Source: an uncultured virus (IMG/VR IMGVR_UViG_3300025723_000018) | Taxonomy: Duplodnaviria; Heunggongvirae; Uroviricota; Caudoviricetes | DNA length: 64,000 nt | Strand: one strand, 5' to 3' | IMG/VR virus record: IMGVR_UViG_3300025723_000018 | Part shown: positions 2,144-63,300 of the stretch, piece after piece | Position numbering within the stretch: position 1 is the stretch's first letter | Layout: every line of letters begins with the position of its first letter | Notes under the pieces: model-generated | Database searches by the model: none | What the model was told of the DNA's origin: nothing | The model's input: only the letters and a program-made list of their open reading frames with translations | Program-made: the position numbers and the translations under genes

Positions 2144-3232
2144 ATGCCAGAAATCAGTAGCCGTACAGTGGGCCCAAGCGGTGCTAAAAAGTCTTTGCGT
2201 AAGGCTTTTCAAAATAAACGTCCAATTTTCCTTTGGGGTCCTCCAGGAATTGGAAAATCGGATATTATCAAACAACTTGGTGTTGAGACTGATTCTCACG
2301 TAATCGATGTTCGTTTGAGCCTTTGGGAACCTACTGACATTAAAGGTATTCCATACTTTGATTCCAACGATAATACAATGCGTTGGGCACCTCCATCGGA
2401 ATTGCCAAGTGCAGAAATGGCAAAAGAACACAAGAACATTATCTTGTTCTTGGATGAAATGAACTCTGCCGCTCCTAGCGTACAAGCGGCGGCTTATCAA
2501 TTGATTTTGAATCGTCGTGTTGGTACATATCACTTGCCAGATAATGTTGTACTAGTTGCGGCAGGTAATCGTGAAACTGACAAGGGTGTTACATTCCGTA
2601 TGCCTGCTCCATTGGCTAACCGTTTTGTTCACTTGGAAATGACTGTTAACTGGGATGACTACTTTGAGTGGGCTGTTGAAAACAAAATCCATAAAGACGT
2701 AGTTGGCTTCTTGAGCTTTTCTAAAAAGAGCTTGTACGACTTTGATCCAAAGTCTAGCTCACGTGCGTTTGCTACTCCACGTTCTTGGAGCTTTGTAAGC
2801 GAATTGCTAACAGATGACGATGTCGATGTAGATACACTTACAGACTTGGTATCAGGTTCTGTAGGCGAAGGTCTTGCAATCAGCTTTATGGCTCACCGTA
2901 AAGTTGCAGGTAAAATGCCTAACCCAACTGATATTTTGTCAGGTAAAGTTAAAAAGATGGATTCCAAAGAAATCTCAGCTATGTATTCTTTAACTGTGTC
3001 ATTGTGCTACGAGTTGAAAGATGCTTGCGAGAAAAATGCTAAAAACTGGAATGATATGACTAATAACTTTTTCGAATTTATGATGAATAACTTTGAAACT
3101 GAATTGGTTATTATGGGTACAAAATTGGCGTTGAGTACTTACAAGTTGCCGTTGGATCCGGACGAAATCAAATGCTTTGACGATTTCCATGCCAAATACG
3201 GCAAGTATATTAGCCAAGCTACTGAAAAGTAA
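2144..3232 (+). CDS. MoxR/dynein-related AAA+ ATPase
   Basis: Walker A GPPGIGKS, Walker B ILFLDE, AAGNR sensor-1, PLANRF arginine finger, TPRSW sensor-2. Confidence 0.9.
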   Translation: MPEISSRTVGPSGAKKSLRKAFQNKRPIFLWGPPGIGKSDIIKQLGVETDSHVIDVRLSLWEPTDIKGIPYFDSNDNTMRWAPPSELPSAEMAKEHKNIILFLDEMNSAAPSVQAAAYQLILNRRVGTYHLPDNVVLVAAGNRETDKGVTFRMPAPLANRFVHLEMTVNWDDYFEWAVENKIHKDVVGFLSFSKKSLYDFDPKSSSRAFATPRSWSFVSELLTDDDVDVDTLTDLVSGSVGEGLAISFMAHRKVAGKMPNPTDILSGKVKKMDSKEISAMYSLTVSLCYELKDACEKNAKNWNDMTNNFFEFMMNNFETELVIMGTKLALSTYKLPLDPDEIKCFDDFHAKYGKYISQATEK

Positions 3233-3248
3233 TTCGGTATAGTCTTAT

Positions 3249-3277
3249 TTGACAGGACCTTAGGGTCCTGTTATAAT
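3249..3277 (+). promoter_or_regulatory. Consensus sigma70 promoter containing an inverted repeat
   Basis: TTGACA (3249-3254), 17 bp, TATAAT (3272-3277); ACAGGACC-ttag-GGTCCTGT at 3252-3271. Confidence 0.8.
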
Positions 3278-3301
3278 ATATACATATAGTAAAGGAGTAT
3301 C

Positions 3302-4486
3302 ATGTCACATACAGATCCAATTATCGACAAAATTATCGTAGCCCGTGTGGGTCTATTACTTCGCCATCCATTCTTTGGTAATCTTGCAACACGTTTGAAA
3401 ATTGAAGAAGGCTCCGAGTGGATGGGTACTGCCGCTACAGACGGACGTACTATCTATTTTAATCGTGAATTTTTTGAACCACTTTCGGTCAAACAAGTTG
3501 AGTTCGTTATTGCTCACGAAATTCTACACAATGTATTTGATCACATGGGTCGACGCGAAGGTCGTAATCCACGTATCTTTAACATTGCCGCTGACTATTG
3601 TGTTAACGGACAATTAGTTCGTGACCGTATCGGCGAGCACAATATTGAAGGTATTAAAATCTTCCATGATTCAAAATACTACGGCATGGGTGCTGAAGAA
3701 GTTTACGATAAAATCTTCGACGAAATGGACGAGGAAGAATTGAATGCCCTTGGACAATTATTGGATGACCACATCGACTGGGGCGAGAATGGTAAAGATG
3801 GTCAACCAAAGTATTCTAAAGAAGAATTAAAACAGATTCGTGACGAAGTTCGTGAAGCTACTATGCAAGCCGCACAAGCCGCAGGTGCTGGCAACACTCC
3901 TGCTAGTGTACAACGCATGATCAAAGAACTTACAGAGCCTAAGATGAATTGGCGTGAAATACTACGTCAACAAATCCAAAGCACTATTAAGAATGACTAT
4001 TCATTTATGCGTCCCAACCGCAAGGGCTGGCACATGAGTGCTGTATTGCCTGGAACACAATTTCAAGAAACAATTGATATTTGTGTAAGTATTGACATGT
4101 CAGGTTCTATTGGTGACGAACAAGCTAAAGATTTCTTAAGTGAAATCAAAGGCATTATGGAAGAATATAAAGACTTTAAAATTAAAGTATGGTGCTTTGA
4201 TACTAAAGTCTACAACGAAGCCGACTTTGATGGTTATAATATCGATGAGTTTGATAACTACGAGCCAATGGGCGGTGGCGGAACTGAGTTTGATGCCAAC
4301 TGGGAATACATGAAGGAACACGATATTCAACCTAAAAAGTTTATTATGTTTACTGATGGTTATCCTTGGGGTAGTTGGGGTGATGAAGATTATTGTGATA
4401 CAATTTTTATCATCCACGGTAATAACACTATTGTTCCACCGTTTGGAGAATATGCCTATTACGAAGCTGTTAAAGAGGCAGCGTAA
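3302..4486 (+). CDS. HExxH metallopeptidase-like domain plus C-terminal vWA domain (DUF2201-type), partner of the AAA+ ATPase
   Basis: TAATDG and AHEILH motifs; MIDAS DMSGS, GGGGTEF, FTDGY. Confidence 0.88.
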   Translation: MSHTDPIIDKIIVARVGLLLRHPFFGNLATRLKIEEGSEWMGTAATDGRTIYFNREFFEPLSVKQVEFVIAHEILHNVFDHMGRREGRNPRIFNIAADYCVNGQLVRDRIGEHNIEGIKIFHDSKYYGMGAEEVYDKIFDEMDEEELNALGQLLDDHIDWGENGKDGQPKYSKEELKQIRDEVREATMQAAQAAGAGNTPASVQRMIKELTEPKMNWREILRQQIQSTIKNDYSFMRPNRKGWHMSAVLPGTQFQETIDICVSIDMSGSIGDEQAKDFLSEIKGIMEEYKDFKIKVWCFDTKVYNEADFDGYNIDEFDNYEPMGGGGTEFDANWEYMKEHDIQPKKFIMFTDGYPWGSWGDEDYCDTIFIIHGNNTIVPPFGEYAYYEAVKEAA

Positions 4487-4773
4487 TGGCATTAAAAAAT
4501 GGCAAACCTAATCCTTTAGATTATTTCAATTTACGGAGGGTTGAGTTTGCCTGCCCTCATTTTAAATACACTTCAATAGACAGGTATAATCCAACTTTAG
4601 TCAAATCTATCGACTCATGGATACGTAAGAATCTAAATAATAGGTACTATGTGGGTCAAGGCATAACACTAGATAATACCAATACGATTGTGTATAATAC
4701 ACGTATTGGTTTTGAAAGTGAAAAAGAACTCAGTTTTTTCACAATTGCCTGCCCGCATCTTCAAACTAGATAA
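4486..4773 (+). CDS. Hypothetical protein (95 aa)
   Basis: Coupled by a TAATG overlap. Confidence 0.75.
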   Translation: MALKNGKPNPLDYFNLRRVEFACPHFKYTSIDRYNPTLVKSIDSWIRKNLNNRYYVGQGITLDNTNTIVYNTRIGFESEKELSFFTIACPHLQTR

Positions 4774-4807
4774 TTAAAATAGTACTTTACCATAAAGGAG
4801 ATAATAC

Positions 4808-5086
4808 ATGTCTGACGTACAATCTACACCAGAAGCGCAACAAGGCGCTACCGAACTTACTATCAATGATTTAAATGCACTTAAAGTAATCATCGATATT
4901 GCTAGCTCACGCGGAGCATTTAAACCAAATGAAATGGTAGCTGTTGGCCAAACTTATACTAAGTTGACAACATTTTTAGATGCAGTTGCAGCTCAACAAG
5001 CAGCTCAGCAACCAGCACCAGCCCCAGCGGCACCACAACAACCAGCAACAGCAGGTACAGTCGCTAGTGCATTAGCAGGAGCATAA
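4808..5086 (+). CDS. Hypothetical protein with Ala/Gln/Pro-rich tail (92 aa)
   Basis: AAGGAG SD upstream. Confidence 0.8.
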   Translation: MSDVQSTPEAQQGATELTINDLNALKVIIDIASSRGAFKPNEMVAVGQTYTKLTTFLDAVAAQQAAQQPAPAPAAPQQPATAGTVASALAGA

Positions 5087-5087
5087 T

Positions 5088-49218: not shown

Positions 49219-49644
49219 ATGTCTTGGTACTATAACAATGAAATTGTAGAAGAACTTCCCGAAGATTGTGTTGGGTTTGTATATCTTATAACAAACACAA
49301 TTACAGGGCGTATGTACATAGGCAAAAAACTAGCAAAATTTTCTAAAACTACTTATCGAACAGTAAAATTAAAAAACGGCACTAAGAAAAAAAAGAAAAT
49401 CCGCAGTAAAATTAACAGTGATTGGCAGACCTATTATGGGTCGTCGGATGAATTACTCAAGGATATTGCGCAGTTAGGTCAAGAAAACTTTCGCAGGGAA
49501 ATACTGTTTTACTGTAAATCCAAAGCAGAAACGTCATATATAGAGGCTCGTGAACAGTTCAGCCGTCGTGTGCTGGAATCAAAAGACTATTATAATGGTC
49601 AAATTTCCGTGCGTGTACACGGTTCACACATACTCAAATCATAA
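49219..49644 (+). CDS. Short GIY-YIG nuclease-family protein (endonuclease II-like)
   Basis: GFVYLITN..TGRMYIGKK, W..YYGSS, F.REIL, E...Q, YYN; Lys-rich insert. Confidence 0.8.
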   Translation: MSWYYNNEIVEELPEDCVGFVYLITNTITGRMYIGKKLAKFSKTTYRTVKLKNGTKKKKKIRSKINSDWQTYYGSSDELLKDIAQLGQENFRREILFYCKSKAETSYIEAREQFSRRVLESKDYYNGQISVRVHGSHILKS

Positions 49645-49669
49645 TACTTTAGGCTACTAAATCACCAAA

Positions 49670-50045
49670 TAAGCCAGCACAGGCGTTGACATTGTGCCCT
49701 GAATCCGTTCTGTTGTGTGACGGCAAGGTAGTTCTGCTTGGTGACAGAGTTATAAATCACTATCCTTTACAGGACGACGATTGGATATGCCATAACCAGT
49801 TTGATTTATAAGGGGAAGTAACAAGGCTAAAAGAGGGGTAGTAGCCCCACGGTTTAACAAGTGTTAGCGTATTTGTTAAGCCCGCCGTCATATAAAGACT
49901 CTGCTCGTGGTACCGGATGACCGCCACTGTAATGCAGTAACGCTAAGGTGATATTGTGCAACTCGGATAATGTCAAAACAACTTTGCCCGCTAGGGCAAA
50001 GTGTGACTGAACAATCTGGATAATATCTTAACGCTTCGCGTTTAA
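49670..50045 (+). ncRNA. Candidate large structured non-coding RNA of unknown class
   Basis: No long ORF; GC-richer than the genome; nested helices 49686-95/49967-76, 49714-24/49884-94, 49750-59/49802-11, 49851-63/49870-82, 49981-89/49994-50002; G-U pairs favour the + strand. Confidence 0.65.
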
Positions 50046-50101
50046 TAAATCATTAACTACTTCTTGATAGACTAATAAAAGTTCGAGCTGAAGCGAAGAA
50101 C

Positions 50102-50121
50102 AGAAGAACGCTAGTTCTTCT
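50102..50121. terminator. Hairpin at the convergence of the + and - transcription units (possible terminator)
   Basis: AGAAGAAC-gcta-GTTCTTCT abutting the stop of the - strand frame at 50121. Confidence 0.5.
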
Positions 50122-50354
50122 TATAACAATGGCATACGTGTTTCTTTAGTTACTTCGATATTCTCTTTGATAATATTATAGATCAATTCACGATCTGAGA
50201 ATGTGTAGATATGAAGTAGATCTTCTACACTAACACCACCACGCATATACCAGGATATTCTAAAAAGTTCTTCTTTAAAGCCCTGGATCTGATTGTCTAG
50301 CCTAACTAGATGTGCTTGAATTTCGTCTGGTGGAAGACTAATTAGGCTTGTACG
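50121..50354 (-). CDS. -1 frame extension of the tail chaperone (gpGT-like; resembles the small gp51-type ORF)
   Basis: 77 open codons RTSLISLPPDEIQAHL...SWYMRGGVSVEDLLHIYTFSDRELIYNIIKENIEVTKETRMPLL; not in the ORF track; starts at a slippery site. Confidence 0.7.
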   Translation of the reverse strand, partial: RTSLISLPPDEIQAHLVRLDNQIQGFKEELFRISWYMRGGVSVEDLLHIYTFSDRELIYNIIKENIEVTKETRMPLL

Positions 50355-51169
50355 AAAAAATTTGACTGATCAAGGTCTACAGCAAGATTGGCTTCTTGGC
50401 CACAGTTGTCGCATTTAACTGGGAATCGAGGCATGGCCCAAGCATCATTATTTTTTTGATTTCTAGCTTTGATAGCATCAAACACACTCTTGTCGCAGTT
50501 GTCCAACCATTCCATGATAAAGGGAGTTTCGGTAACTACTTGCTGACCAGTATCAACACTTTCAATAGTAGCACGATAAATTTCAGTTTGGATATCGGCT
50601 AATTCTTTGAATAAACTGTTAACTACTTCTTGTCTTTCTGGAGTGTTGTCCATGACTTCTGCTTGAGCAAGACGTTGTTGTAGTCTAAAGTTTTTAAGAT
50701 TAAACTCAGTGCTTTGCTTATATGTTAATGGACGTAGATTAATGGTCAGATCGTCTGTGACAATTTTACCGTCATACTGACAGGCCATGTAAAATTCCAC
50801 AACTTTGTTTAGATCGATGTCATAGTCATTTTCAGATCCGCAATTATTGCACTTGTGTCCCACGGTCATGGAGTTGCCATAGGTAGCAATACGAATAGCT
50901 GCCAATAAAATAACTAGATCCAGTATACACAATTCCCAAGGATCTTTGATAGCCGGGCAACAGCTGGTTAAAACTTGTGCTGTGCTTTCGCCAGACAACA
51001 ATGCATCTGGAGTTTTAACAATGATTTCATCCATGCCCGTCATACCATATACTGGTGTATTGGTAACATCGCCTTGGATAGTACCGGGCTTGTTAAAGAT
51101 ACCTCCGCTGGGGAACTTGATATAGATCTTAGGTTGTCTAAAGTACTTTTGTAACGGATTAACGGCCAT
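50342..51169 (-). CDS. Baseplate hub assembly/tail chaperone, T4 gp26-like
   Basis: NPL..YFRQP.IYI..PS.G, MT..DEI..KTPDAL..G, two CxxC pairs; GGAG SD and TATAAATA upstream. Confidence 0.75.
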   Translation of the reverse strand: MAVNPLQKYFRQPKIYIKFPSGGIFNKPGTIQGDVTNTPVYGMTGMDEIIVKTPDALLSGESTAQVLTSCCPAIKDPWELCILDLVILLAAIRIATYGNSMTVGHKCNNCGSENDYDIDLNKVVEFYMACQYDGKIVTDDLTINLRPLTYKQSTEFNLKNFRLQQRLAQAEVMDNTPERQEVVNSLFKELADIQTEIYRATIESVDTGQQVVTETPFIMEWLDNCDKSVFDAIKARNQKNNDAWAMPRFPVKCDNCGQEANLAVDLDQSNFFVQA

Positions 51170-62169: not shown

Positions 62170-62231
62170 GTACGATCCACATAGGGTGGATTTTATGCGG
62201 AAATCCAACCGCGTACGGCCTAGAACGCCGT
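62170..62231 (+). promoter_or_regulatory. Structured 5' leader after a TAAATA late-promoter motif
   Basis: Helices 62175-80/62186-91, 62194-200/62209-15, 62215-19/62227-31, with alternative pairings. Confidence 0.55.
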
Positions 62232-62253
62232 GTTTTCATAAGGAGAAAATAAA

Positions 62254-63300
62254 ATGGGACGTCCTCTAAATAAGAAATATTTTGGTAATCGTAACGTCGG
62301 ATCTGATGGAACATTCGCATCAGGTGCTACTTTGTCTAATACCAGCGCAGAAATTGGTGGTAAGAGCATCTCCAGTTTCAACATTACAAACCGTGGTTCA
62401 TGGTTATCAAACAACGTAAGTCCAAATGTGCCTGTACTAGGTTTGGCAGTACCAGCTCCACAAATTGCTGATGGTATCCAAGCAACTTGGTCAGTGACTT
62501 ATTGTATTGACACAGTAACAACTAATGCTGGAAAAACAGGATTGGTAACTGGCGATACTTATACAAGCTCAATATTCCCAGGATCAATAATCACTGTTGG
62601 CGACCTAAGCGGAGCAAATGCTTTGTTTACAGTTACTAATGCCGGTAGCACTGGTAACATTCCACTTGATACAACAACAGTTAGTATTACTCAATTAACT
62701 GGTACAGGGGCTGCTACTTCTTTTACTGTTGATATTCATACAAAATTAGCCACAGCCAATATTAACAATGTGGGTTCTGGTTATACAGAAGAACAAGTGT
62801 TTACTATTACATTAGCAAACGGTGCTACAGGTACTCCTCCAACAATCAGTATTGTACTAACACAACCAGATCCAACACAGGCTGCAGGTAGCGTTGGTGA
62901 TCGTGAGCCAGCTATTATTGCTTATGCTTGGTTAAGCGGTGCGCCAGCAGAAGTTGATATCGTTCGTCAAGTGTCAACAGATCGTTATCGTATAAACAAA
63001 AATGGCGAGTATACACGCACAGGCGCACACACTGGTAAACTAAAAGAAACTGGTTTAGTAAGCGGAACATTTACTGGTAATGAAGGCGCAGAAATGAATA
63101 TCTGGGCATTTGATGCAAGCGGCAATTCATATCTTGTTAAGAAATTAACAGCTCGCAAGGCAGTAGTTTATCCAGTTGCTTGTGCTCGTTTAAACAAGTC
63201 TGCTGGTTCAATATTTGCTGCAGGCACAGCAGTTCCTTGGAAATTCTTCCCAGGACAAGCAAACGCTAGTGCAGGTTACGTGAAGATTGAAAACGCTTAA
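62254..63300 (+). CDS. Virion structural protein (348 aa, Thr/Gly-rich)
   Basis: AAGGAG SD; GSGY motif; beta-rich; downstream of the capsid gene. Confidence 0.7.
   Translation: MGRPLNKKYFGNRNVGSDGTFASGATLSNTSAEIGGKSISSFNITNRGSWLSNNVSPNVPVLGLAVPAPQIADGIQATWSVTYCIDTVTTNAGKTGLVTGDTYTSSIFPGSIITVGDLSGANALFTVTNAGSTGNIPLDTTTVSITQLTGTGAATSFTVDIHTKLATANINNVGSGYTEEQVFTITLANGATGTPPTISIVLTQPDPTQAAGSVGDREPAIIAYAWLSGAPAEVDIVRQVSTDRYRINKNGEYTRTGAHTGKLKETGLVSGTFTGNEGAEMNIWAFDASGNSYLVKKLTARKAVVYPVACARLNKSAGSIFAAGTAVPWKFFPGQANASAGYVKIENA

Follow-up and report, generated by a model that had tools for sequence, protein, structure and literature searches.

What is encoded in the longest interval without an open reading frame (ORF) in an uncultured T4-like phage from fresh water? 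The stretch analysed here, 64,000 nucleotides (nt) of IMG/VR record IMGVR_UViG_3300025723_000018 (the window), carries on its + strand gp47-like and gp46-like genes, an ORF of 92 amino acids (aa) and a 141-aa GIY-YIG gene (49219-49644). These are followed by 697 nt (49645-50341) that lack any ORF of at least 100 aa. An earlier reading of the letters alone (the sequence-only reading) had taken the gap to be the only long one in the window. It is indeed the longest, but its right end, 50121-50341, is a probable frameshift extension of the gp26-like gene on the other strand, so that the real gap is 49645-50120. Two more such intervals, 4493-5087 (595 nt) and 1110-1656 (547 nt), gave no match to the RNA profile described below. 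The gap is also GC-richer, as had been noticed, at 0.429 (0.456 for 49660-50010) against 0.365 for the window. We read it as the gene for a single non-coding RNA of the + strand, a full-length RNA of which the catalogued Polynucleobacter-1 motif is only a part.

A search of Rfam 15 with cmscan placed RF01718 (Polynucleobacter-1) at 49672-49811 on the + strand, scoring 78.9 bits where the gathering threshold is 37 (E 4.5e-15). The match covers model positions 1-141 of 141 and is not truncated. The sequence-only reading had recognised no known signature and had proposed an undescribed non-coding RNA, possibly a ribozyme, with a hit to a known family as the finding that would remove its novelty. 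For the 5′ 141 nt, which are the catalogued motif, that novelty is gone; the other 310 nt or so have no relevant Rfam match at E up to 10 (49400-50400 searched). Besides RF01718, that interval gave a single chance-level match to a long non-coding RNA, far under its cut-off. No covariance-model match was obtained for GOLLD, ROOL, HEARO, OLE, raiA or other catalogued large RNAs. A group I intron carrying the GIY-YIG gene was likewise rejected, as no intron model of Rfam matches within 49400-50400 at E up to 10 and no + strand ORF resumes after the RNA. The whole 64 kb holds two Rfam matches at gathering level; the second is RF02980 (freshwater-2, a motif of cis-regulatory type) at 62175-62256 on the + strand, with 75.4 bits against a cut-off of 49.9.

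The catalogued motif proved to be a part of something longer. A scan of viral contigs with a motif of the 5′ domain returned 120 loci; with locus L001 added, 44 of the 121 match the 477 nt of the window by nhmmer, most of them across query positions from about 20 to 400 or more. When the scan was run instead with a motif from the uncatalogued 3′ part, 119 viral loci were found, and 114 of these match a profile of the whole RNA, mostly end to end. That profile has 484 positions and matches the window at 49624-50123. A scan of genomes gave 23 loci, many in Polynucleobacter and one of them phage-like and full length; the 5′ and 3′ matches occur together in 13 bacterial loci, with spans of 427-473 nt. 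Since the two matches travel together, the Rfam motif makes up the 5′ third of a longer RNA, about 460 nt in length. In the window this RNA occupies 49660-50121 on the + strand, beginning with the 5′ strand of pseudoknot A and closing with hairpin P12. More than 150 contigs of uncultured aquatic T4-like phages share its architecture, and small mobile Polynucleobacter islands hold a much diverged form of it. In the published literature on Polynucleobacter-1 and RF01718 we did not find a description of a longer RNA. A 2023 survey of structured RNAs in viruses, drawn from IMG/VR, lists in the part of the paper available to us candidates of 29-151 nt only and dropped regions overlapping Rfam (PMC10690425).

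The fold was derived from an alignment of 77 full-length sequences, pairwise less than 88% identical, from which seven sequences with long insertions were left out. Helices were located by counts of changes on both sides of a pair and by mutual information, which replaced a stack search with loose criteria that was too noisy; RNAalifold on the trimmed MAFFT alignment recovered part of the fold only. The resulting model has 72 pairs in 16 helices, four of which are pseudoknot contacts. Paired cells make up 96.4% of the observed alignment and 80.5% of shuffled ones, and 53 of the 72 pairs change on both sides. The covariation score is 0.460 against 0.170 in the control, with no shuffle out of 500 as high. 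Sliding the 3′ partner by 1-3 columns lowers pairing to 34-43%. There are 49 invariant columns. Hairpins P2, P5, P6, P11 and P12 vary in length and align poorly, yet each of them forms in 90-100% of the sequences and is represented by 58 to 77 different ones. Covariation in homologous loci and a folding energy better than that of shuffled sequence had been named in advance as the tests of a structured RNA, and both came out in its favour (z -2.53 for the + strand, -1.49 for the - strand). G-U pairs are fixed on the + strand, for instance in 74 of 77 and 77 of 77 cells of two pairs, and would be C-A mismatches on the other strand; the folded strand is therefore +. The proposal of a single-stranded, multi-domain structured RNA of + sense is thus borne out.

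The 5′ domain comprises P1 to P4 and is tied by pseudoknot A, in which TCACC (49662-66), lying upstream of the Rfam model, pairs with GGTGA in the loop of P3 (49740-44). These five pairs are 93% canonical, with three changed on both sides (81.5% paired in the structure test). A further pair between the loops of P1 and P3 (49691-49738; CG 64, AU 11) joins the pseudoknot, and bacterial copies have CTACTG/CAGTAG at the same position. The P1 hairpin (49677-81/49693-97) is 97.7% paired, with all five pairs changing on both sides, and a short pseudoknot contact lies beside it (49673-74/49683-84; GC 62, AU 12). P2 (49704-24) forms at least four base pairs (bp) in 97% of the sequences, 58 of them unique; in the window cmscan marks six non-standard pairs there and RNAfold gives a 6-bp hairpin of -4.1 kcal/mol. 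P3 (49733-36/49745-48) is 92.3% paired. A helix at 49750-59/49802-11 had been drawn by hand from the window, and its core, the outer helix of P4 (49754-59/49802-07), is 99.1% paired with both-side changes in five of six pairs. It can be extended by 49750-53/49808-11, where the pair 49751-49810 is 92% canonical. The two hairpins inside P4 (49760-76 and 49779-84/49796-801) are 98.7% and 99.1% paired. The conserved CACUAUCC...GGACG of this multi-stem domain, a feature of RF01718, is present at 49759-49776.

The 3′ domain, P5 to P9, is tied by pseudoknots B and C. P5 is the hairpin GGGGT-agta-GCCCC (49835-48), with at least four bp in 90% of the sequences (58 unique). P6 is a 13-bp hairpin (49851-82, stem 49851-63/49870-82) with a 7-nt loop at 49864-70; ten of the 11 pairs counted change on both sides, and all 77 sequences are unique and fold, with a median of 13 pairs. 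Its loop, TTAGCGT (49864-70), forms pseudoknot B with ACGCTAA (49940-46), 97.2% paired and changing on both sides in seven of seven pairs. Pseudoknot C joins GTCAT (49887-91) to ATGAC in the loop of P8 (49917-21); it is 99.7% paired and covaries (UA 45 and CG 32 in one pair, GC 53 and AU 21 in another). P7 (49901-04/49934-37) encloses P8 (49907-11/49923-27), both recovered in the structure test. This region holds the near-invariant GGTACCGGAYRACCGCC, whose invariance is partly by construction as it served as a search pattern. P9 is the hairpin CTTTGCCC-gcta-GGGCAAAG (49982-50001), 97.6% paired. P5, P6, the GTGG/CCAC element at 49907-27 and the 9-bp hairpin at 49981-50002 had all been seen in the single sequence, and comparison supports each of them. 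Two long-range helices that were to enclose the whole (49686-95/49967-76 and 49714-24/49884-94) fared differently. They are paired in 54.3% of cells against 54.0% in shuffled alignments, with 147 of 500 shuffles as high, and their strands are taken by the covarying P1, P2 and pseudoknot C; we reject them.

The foot of P9, CTTT (49982-85), is complementary to AAAG at 49998-50001 and also to AAAG at 49894-97. The latter pairing, of four pairs, is 92% canonical; 49894 equals 49998 in 82% of the sequences, and 49894-49985 is canonical in 82%. Two AAAG copies that covary in identity, with CTTT as the partner visible to both, suggest that the foot may have an alternative pairing.

Beyond the 3′ domain a tail carries hairpins P11 and P12, and ahead of these lies a small hairpin, P10 (AACGC-ttc-GCGTT, 50030-42), which is partly conserved (at least four bp in 62% of 71 sequences). 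P11 (50080-50100) consists of a variable stem around an internal loop, GA/GAA, that is conserved, and of a GC stem of 2 bp capped by a loop of 4 nt. It folds in 77 of 77 sequences, 73 of them unique, and its motif GAGCG..AGCGAA also appears in bacterial copies. P12, the terminal 8-bp hairpin (50102-50121), changes on both sides in all eight pairs, and at its end it runs into the stop codon of the ORF that converges on the - strand. No U tract follows it, the next bases being TTATAA, and no + strand intrinsic terminator is predicted in 49645-50121; a terminator-like site is found on the - strand at 50002-49981.

The RNA also carries a pair of single-stranded boxes. R1 (NNA-CTC-GGATAAT-G, 49959-72) lies 5′ of P9, and R2 (NNA-TCT-GGATAAT-A, 50012-25) lies 53 nt after R1, so that P9 stands between them. 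Among 159 loci with a match to the RNA, 134 also match the box pattern, which does not force equality of the boxes and which the other 25 do not match; in all 134 the two 7-nt cores are equal, in nine variants. In the alignment, the four variable positions (49965, 49966, 49969 and 49971) are identical to their R2 counterparts in 77 of 77 sequences, and the two bases ahead of the fixed A agree between boxes in 71-82%. The spacing is 47-60 nt everywhere but in two loci, where it is 74 and 79. In bacterial copies the boxes are arranged alike and have a sequence of their own, such as AACTC-AGCGAAAG and AATCT-AGCGAAAG; their 8-mers are equal in 11 of 16 copies, and positions 1-7 in 14 of 16. Box identity without a complementary partner in cis points either to a common sequence-reading partner in trans or to copying that re-anneals on the second box.

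Several simpler accounts of the boxes were tried and set aside. A U/G-rich stretch near 49807 would pair with them by wobble in 35 of 77 sequences, does not covary with them and is already part of P4. Self-complementary dimerisation sites fail in the GCAT and GAAT variants (18 of 134). Take-off and landing codons of ribosomal bypassing find no ORF here, and the bacterial boxes lack a stop codon. CsrA-type GGA sites do not fit, as GGA is absent from 76 of the 134 cores. Crossover sites of a tyrosine recombinase lack the enzyme, none being found in five phage records. A repeat search of one bacterial locus gave nothing that would account for the boxes.

A small nuclease gene on the same strand lies upstream of the RNA in all 96 phage loci with at least 450 nt of upstream sequence: GIY-YIG directly adjacent in 86, GIY-YIG with one intervening gene in seven, and a PD-(D/E)xK nuclease instead in three. 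The RNA starts a few tens of nt past the nuclease stop codon. In the window, the 141-aa protein (49219-49644, +) is a SegE-type GIY-YIG domain and little else: the N-terminal domain (PF19835, E 1.4e-33, residues 3-129; phrog_447) makes up the whole protein, with no C-terminal DNA-binding region, and homing-endonuclease matches are returned by PHROGs and PADLOC. Orthology to T4 endonuclease II was not supported at the sensitivity of phmmer, whose search of PDB sequences yielded no more than a weak hit to a protein of a mobile intron (E 0.013). The PD-(D/E)xK gene, encoding 173 aa (L020 885-1406, +; L053 1635-2156, -; L178 1654-2187, +), matches PF24608 (E 2.5e-29 and 3.2e-22) and ends within about 35 nt of the RNA. 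In L135 a 308-aa methyltransferase-like ORF (2774-3700, -; PF08003, E 4.3e-07) stands between the GIY-YIG gene and the RNA, and six more loci have an insertion of about 800 nt at this place.

The GIY-YIG family is much wider than the RNA and occurs in 502 cultured-phage records, at one place per record. In three complete cultured phages with the gene, Melnitz-3, BUCT-ZZ01 and ACP17, nothing matches RF01718 at E up to 0.1, and the gene is not followed by a gap. In Melnitz-3 (L241) and BUCT-ZZ01 (L242) the GIY-YIG homologue follows ribonucleotide reductase genes, and in BUCT-ZZ01 it is unannotated. The sequence-only reading had linked the RNA to the adjacent GIY-YIG protein as possibly co-transcribed with it and bound by it. 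As a matter of position the link holds, in 93 of 96 loci; it is not obligatory, given the three PD-(D/E)xK loci, the bacterial copies without a nuclease and the three cultured phages without the RNA. The upstream nuclease is a constant neighbour, probably a partner in operon or synteny, and is unproven as a component.

On the far side of the RNA lies the gp26-like baseplate hub gene (50342-51169, -; PF12322, phrog_150), convergent with it. This ORF ends in SNFFVQA and a stop just past a TTTTTTC run (+ strand GAAAAAA, 50353-59), and the -1 frame stays open for about 80 further codons, to 50121, the end of the probable -1 frameshift extension. The gene or its extension is convergent with the RNA in 69 of 92 loci that have at least 900 nt downstream. 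Within the window ARAGORN found no transfer RNA (tRNA) or transfer-messenger RNA genes, and Rfam gave no match to the latter. Against cultured phages there was no DNA match to the RNA (distant mode) or to the 6-kb locus (near mode).

Bacterial copies have other neighbours. The motif occurs in 18 of 151 sampled Polynucleobacter genomes, with one or two copies each, and is thus accessory in this genus. One genome contig (G002:C1) has two copies on the - strand, 401229-401366 and 419563-419698, 18 kb apart, with the 3′ domain found by nhmmer in the second only. Copies lie behind a TATAAAT-like box; on one side is a divergent DUF6641 gene and on the other a tyrosine recombinase of 188 aa, with variable genes in between. 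DUF6641 is a conserved basic protein of some 145 aa whose gene diverges from the RNA in every case (L261 2314-2748, -, and 15 other bacterial loci); its AlphaFold model (predicted local distance difference test score, pLDDT, 81.1) gave no PDB fold match at E up to 0.001, and no sequence match was obtained. The recombinase, downstream of the RNA by 266-1284 nt in nine loci, resembles Xer recombinases, integron integrases and DNA invertases by NCBIfam. The genes that follow the RNA vary: recombinase, a PDC-S14-like protein, unknowns. The PDC-S14-like protein, of 813 aa, starts 47 nt after the RNA (L255 127-2568, -), and its N-terminal 148 residues are matched by PDC-S14, a defence candidate of PADLOC (E 1.6e-51). 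Neither a GIY-YIG nor a PD-(D/E)xK gene lies within 3 kb of the bacterial copies.

The best-supported statement about this locus is a structural one: it holds a large pseudoknotted RNA, autonomous and passing between phages and host islands. As to what the RNA does, we favour with moderate confidence one + strand non-coding RNA of about 460 nt that acts in trans as a scaffold displaying two identical boxes. It would be transcribed together with the nuclease gene, as the 3′ part of that message, or else start at a promoter that overlaps the end of this gene, and its own 3′ end would lie at P12. A scaffold in trans is preferred to a leader in cis because the next gene in the phage is convergent. 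The RNA would be a compact scaffold that presents two single-stranded boxes which must be identical, and at these a sequence-reading partner that is not encoded nearby would dock, in one copy or in two.

Several points weigh against this picture. We infer the transcript, its ends and its abundance. The homologues were collected through two conserved motifs, whose invariance is therefore partly circular; the helices were found and counted on one and the same alignment, and the shuffle control takes no account of phylogeny. No other column of the RNA covaries with the boxes in the 77-sequence alignment. There is no further box copy or complement in the 2.5-kb flanks or in the window, and in the 345-kb genome G156 (99% complete) copies and complements are at control level; a lone extra exact copy in G156 lies within an ORF and has no homology to the RNA around it. 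RF01718 itself has a single match in G156. In bacteria a gene on the same strand follows the RNA, in one locus starting 47 nt later, and there the leader role scored by Weinberg et al. may yet apply.

Two other explanations turn on the upstream nuclease. The RNA might be the cofactor, guide or regulator of this domain-only enzyme, with the boxes as its address, and the invariable presence of a small same-strand nuclease in the 96 phage loci, the unrelated PD-(D/E)xK fold in the GIY-YIG slot of three loci, the missing DNA-binding domain of the GIY-YIG protein (residues 3-129 of 141 being the nuclease domain) and boxes that behave like a variable address would all suit it. We nevertheless regard it as unlikely, as each partner is found alone, the RNA without a nuclease in bacteria and the nuclease without the RNA in cultured phages. 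One RNA bound by two unrelated folds would be unparsimonious, and no target for a guide of 7-13 nt was found in the flanks, the window or G156. The nuclease could instead be selfish, a homing-type gene that settles beside a conserved autonomous RNA gene much as Seg endonucleases do among the tRNA genes of T4, where SegB is located in the tRNA region. Its SegE-type domain and homing-endonuclease matches point that way, as does an unrelated nuclease at the same spot in three loci. But the gene is not sporadic: its presence in 93 of 96 loci and at one place in each of 502 records is the steady, single-place distribution of a core gene. The C-terminal DNA-binding part of Seg proteins is absent, and in Melnitz-3 and BUCT-ZZ01 the gene sits behind the reductase genes where there is no RNA. 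We hold this explanation to be about as improbable as the guide.

A role in cis, as a 3′ untranslated region (UTR) or terminator block for convergent transcripts or as a leader or riboswitch for the next gene, would agree with the start of the RNA so close to the nuclease stop codon, with P12 exactly at the convergent junction, with the - strand terminator-like site and with the same-strand gene behind the bacterial copies; Weinberg et al. also scored the motif as probably cis-regulatory, in the part of their paper available to us (PMC2864571). Some 460 nt with three long-range pseudoknots and 49 invariant columns far exceed what a terminator needs, however, and P12 has no U tract. With no downstream + strand gene in the phage and variable following genes in bacteria, we find such a role unlikely. 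The least probable of the explanations weighed here is an element acting as DNA, with the locus either an origin of replication or a site of recombination at which the twin boxes are crossover cores that must match. A structured single-stranded DNA origin had been the main alternative of the sequence-only reading; we find no support for it, and homologues lie in bacterial islands behind the TATAAAT-like box. For recombination there is more to say. Tyrosine recombinases require identity between two crossover regions that are free to vary between lineages, which matching yet variable boxes would satisfy, and a 188-aa tyrosine recombinase does lie downstream in nine bacterial loci. In five phage records, one of them 99% complete, no such enzyme was found, and still the boxes are identical in 134 of 134 loci. 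The boxes are direct repeats just 47-60 nt apart, and the G-U pairs of the helices become C-A mismatches on the opposite strand.

A bolder extension of the scaffold reading, which we consider highly improbable, would make the boxes a programmable address: two identical single strands of 7-13 nt on a pseudoknotted scaffold would base-pair with a nucleic-acid partner, and the RNA would be the specificity subunit of a new RNA-directed system, acting in phages with the upstream nuclease, be it GIY-YIG or PD-(D/E)xK. Such a system would be common to aquatic T4-like phages and the islands of their hosts. In a variant of this idea a polymerase would copy the unit between the boxes, which would serve it as jump-back repeats.

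The RNA matters in several ways. An orphan motif of the catalogue is revealed as the leading third of a far larger RNA, and an extended Rfam model would improve the annotation of freshwater viromes. Two features offer a handle for experiments: the twin boxes, which are identical within every sequence and different between lineages and so point to sequence reading by a partner, and the nuclease upstream in phages, always present and swapped between two unrelated folds. Since the RNA occurs in lytic T4-like phages and in islands of their likely hosts, with one copy next to a defence-candidate gene, it may take part in phage-host conflict.

How does this RNA compare with known systems? Polynucleobacter-1 was described, in the part of the report available to us, as a probable RNA, probably cis-regulatory, of Burkholderiales and fresh water or estuary, with 16 sequences given (Weinberg et al. 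2010, PMC2864571). All 141 positions of the model are matched here, P1 and P4 are 97.7-99.1% paired, and the taxa fit, with Burkholderiales and fresh water. The catalogued motif nevertheless covers about 30% of the RNA, without the 5′ strand of pseudoknot A, the 3′ domain, the boxes and the tail hairpins. In the phage window the RNA does not stand in a 5′ UTR, as the next gene is convergent, whereas bacterial loci do have a following gene. The viral csRNAs (DNAVirus_X) share with our RNA the IMG/VR source and the mining of covariation, and single hairpins or pseudoknots described here may be among them; as given in the part of that survey available to us, they differ in their length of 29-151 nt and in the discarding of regions overlapping Rfam (PMC10690425).

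Among RNAs that work with enzymes, the HEARO or omega RNA of IscB, like other guide RNAs linked to nucleases, offers a likeness and not a membership: a large structured RNA beside a small nuclease gene, with a short variable segment in a conserved scaffold. Our RNA differs in that Rfam gives no match, its neighbouring nucleases belong to the GIY-YIG and PD-(D/E)xK families, the segment that varies has only 7-13 nt, is present twice and is internal, and bacteria have the RNA without a nuclease. In telomerase RNA and the RNA of the DRT2 reverse transcriptase, identical direct repeats flank a unit, and the nascent copy re-anneals on the second. Two short, identical direct repeats flank a unit of fixed content here as well, but the 47-60-nt unit is interrupted, in the window sequence, by stop codons in either strand; among the annotated parts of the loci we noticed no gene for a reverse transcriptase, where no search was aimed at one. 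Type III toxin-antitoxin RNAs consist of tandem repeats of about 36-45 nt, whereas here the boxes of about 13 nt alone are alike and the modules (P9, P10) differ, as judged without a tandem-repeat scan. GOLLD and ROOL, finally, differ from our RNA in giving no Rfam match, and ours is smaller and without tRNA neighbours, none being present in the window. The likeness lies in their kind: they too are large, multi-pseudoknotted, phage-associated RNAs found in phages and bacteria, many of them carried by phages and prophages, and a bioRxiv preprint (10.1101/2024.12.08.627333) reportedly has them forming RNA-only complexes. Its three long-range pseudoknots place the full-length Polynucleobacter-1 RNA among these few large and ornate RNAs of bacteria and phages.

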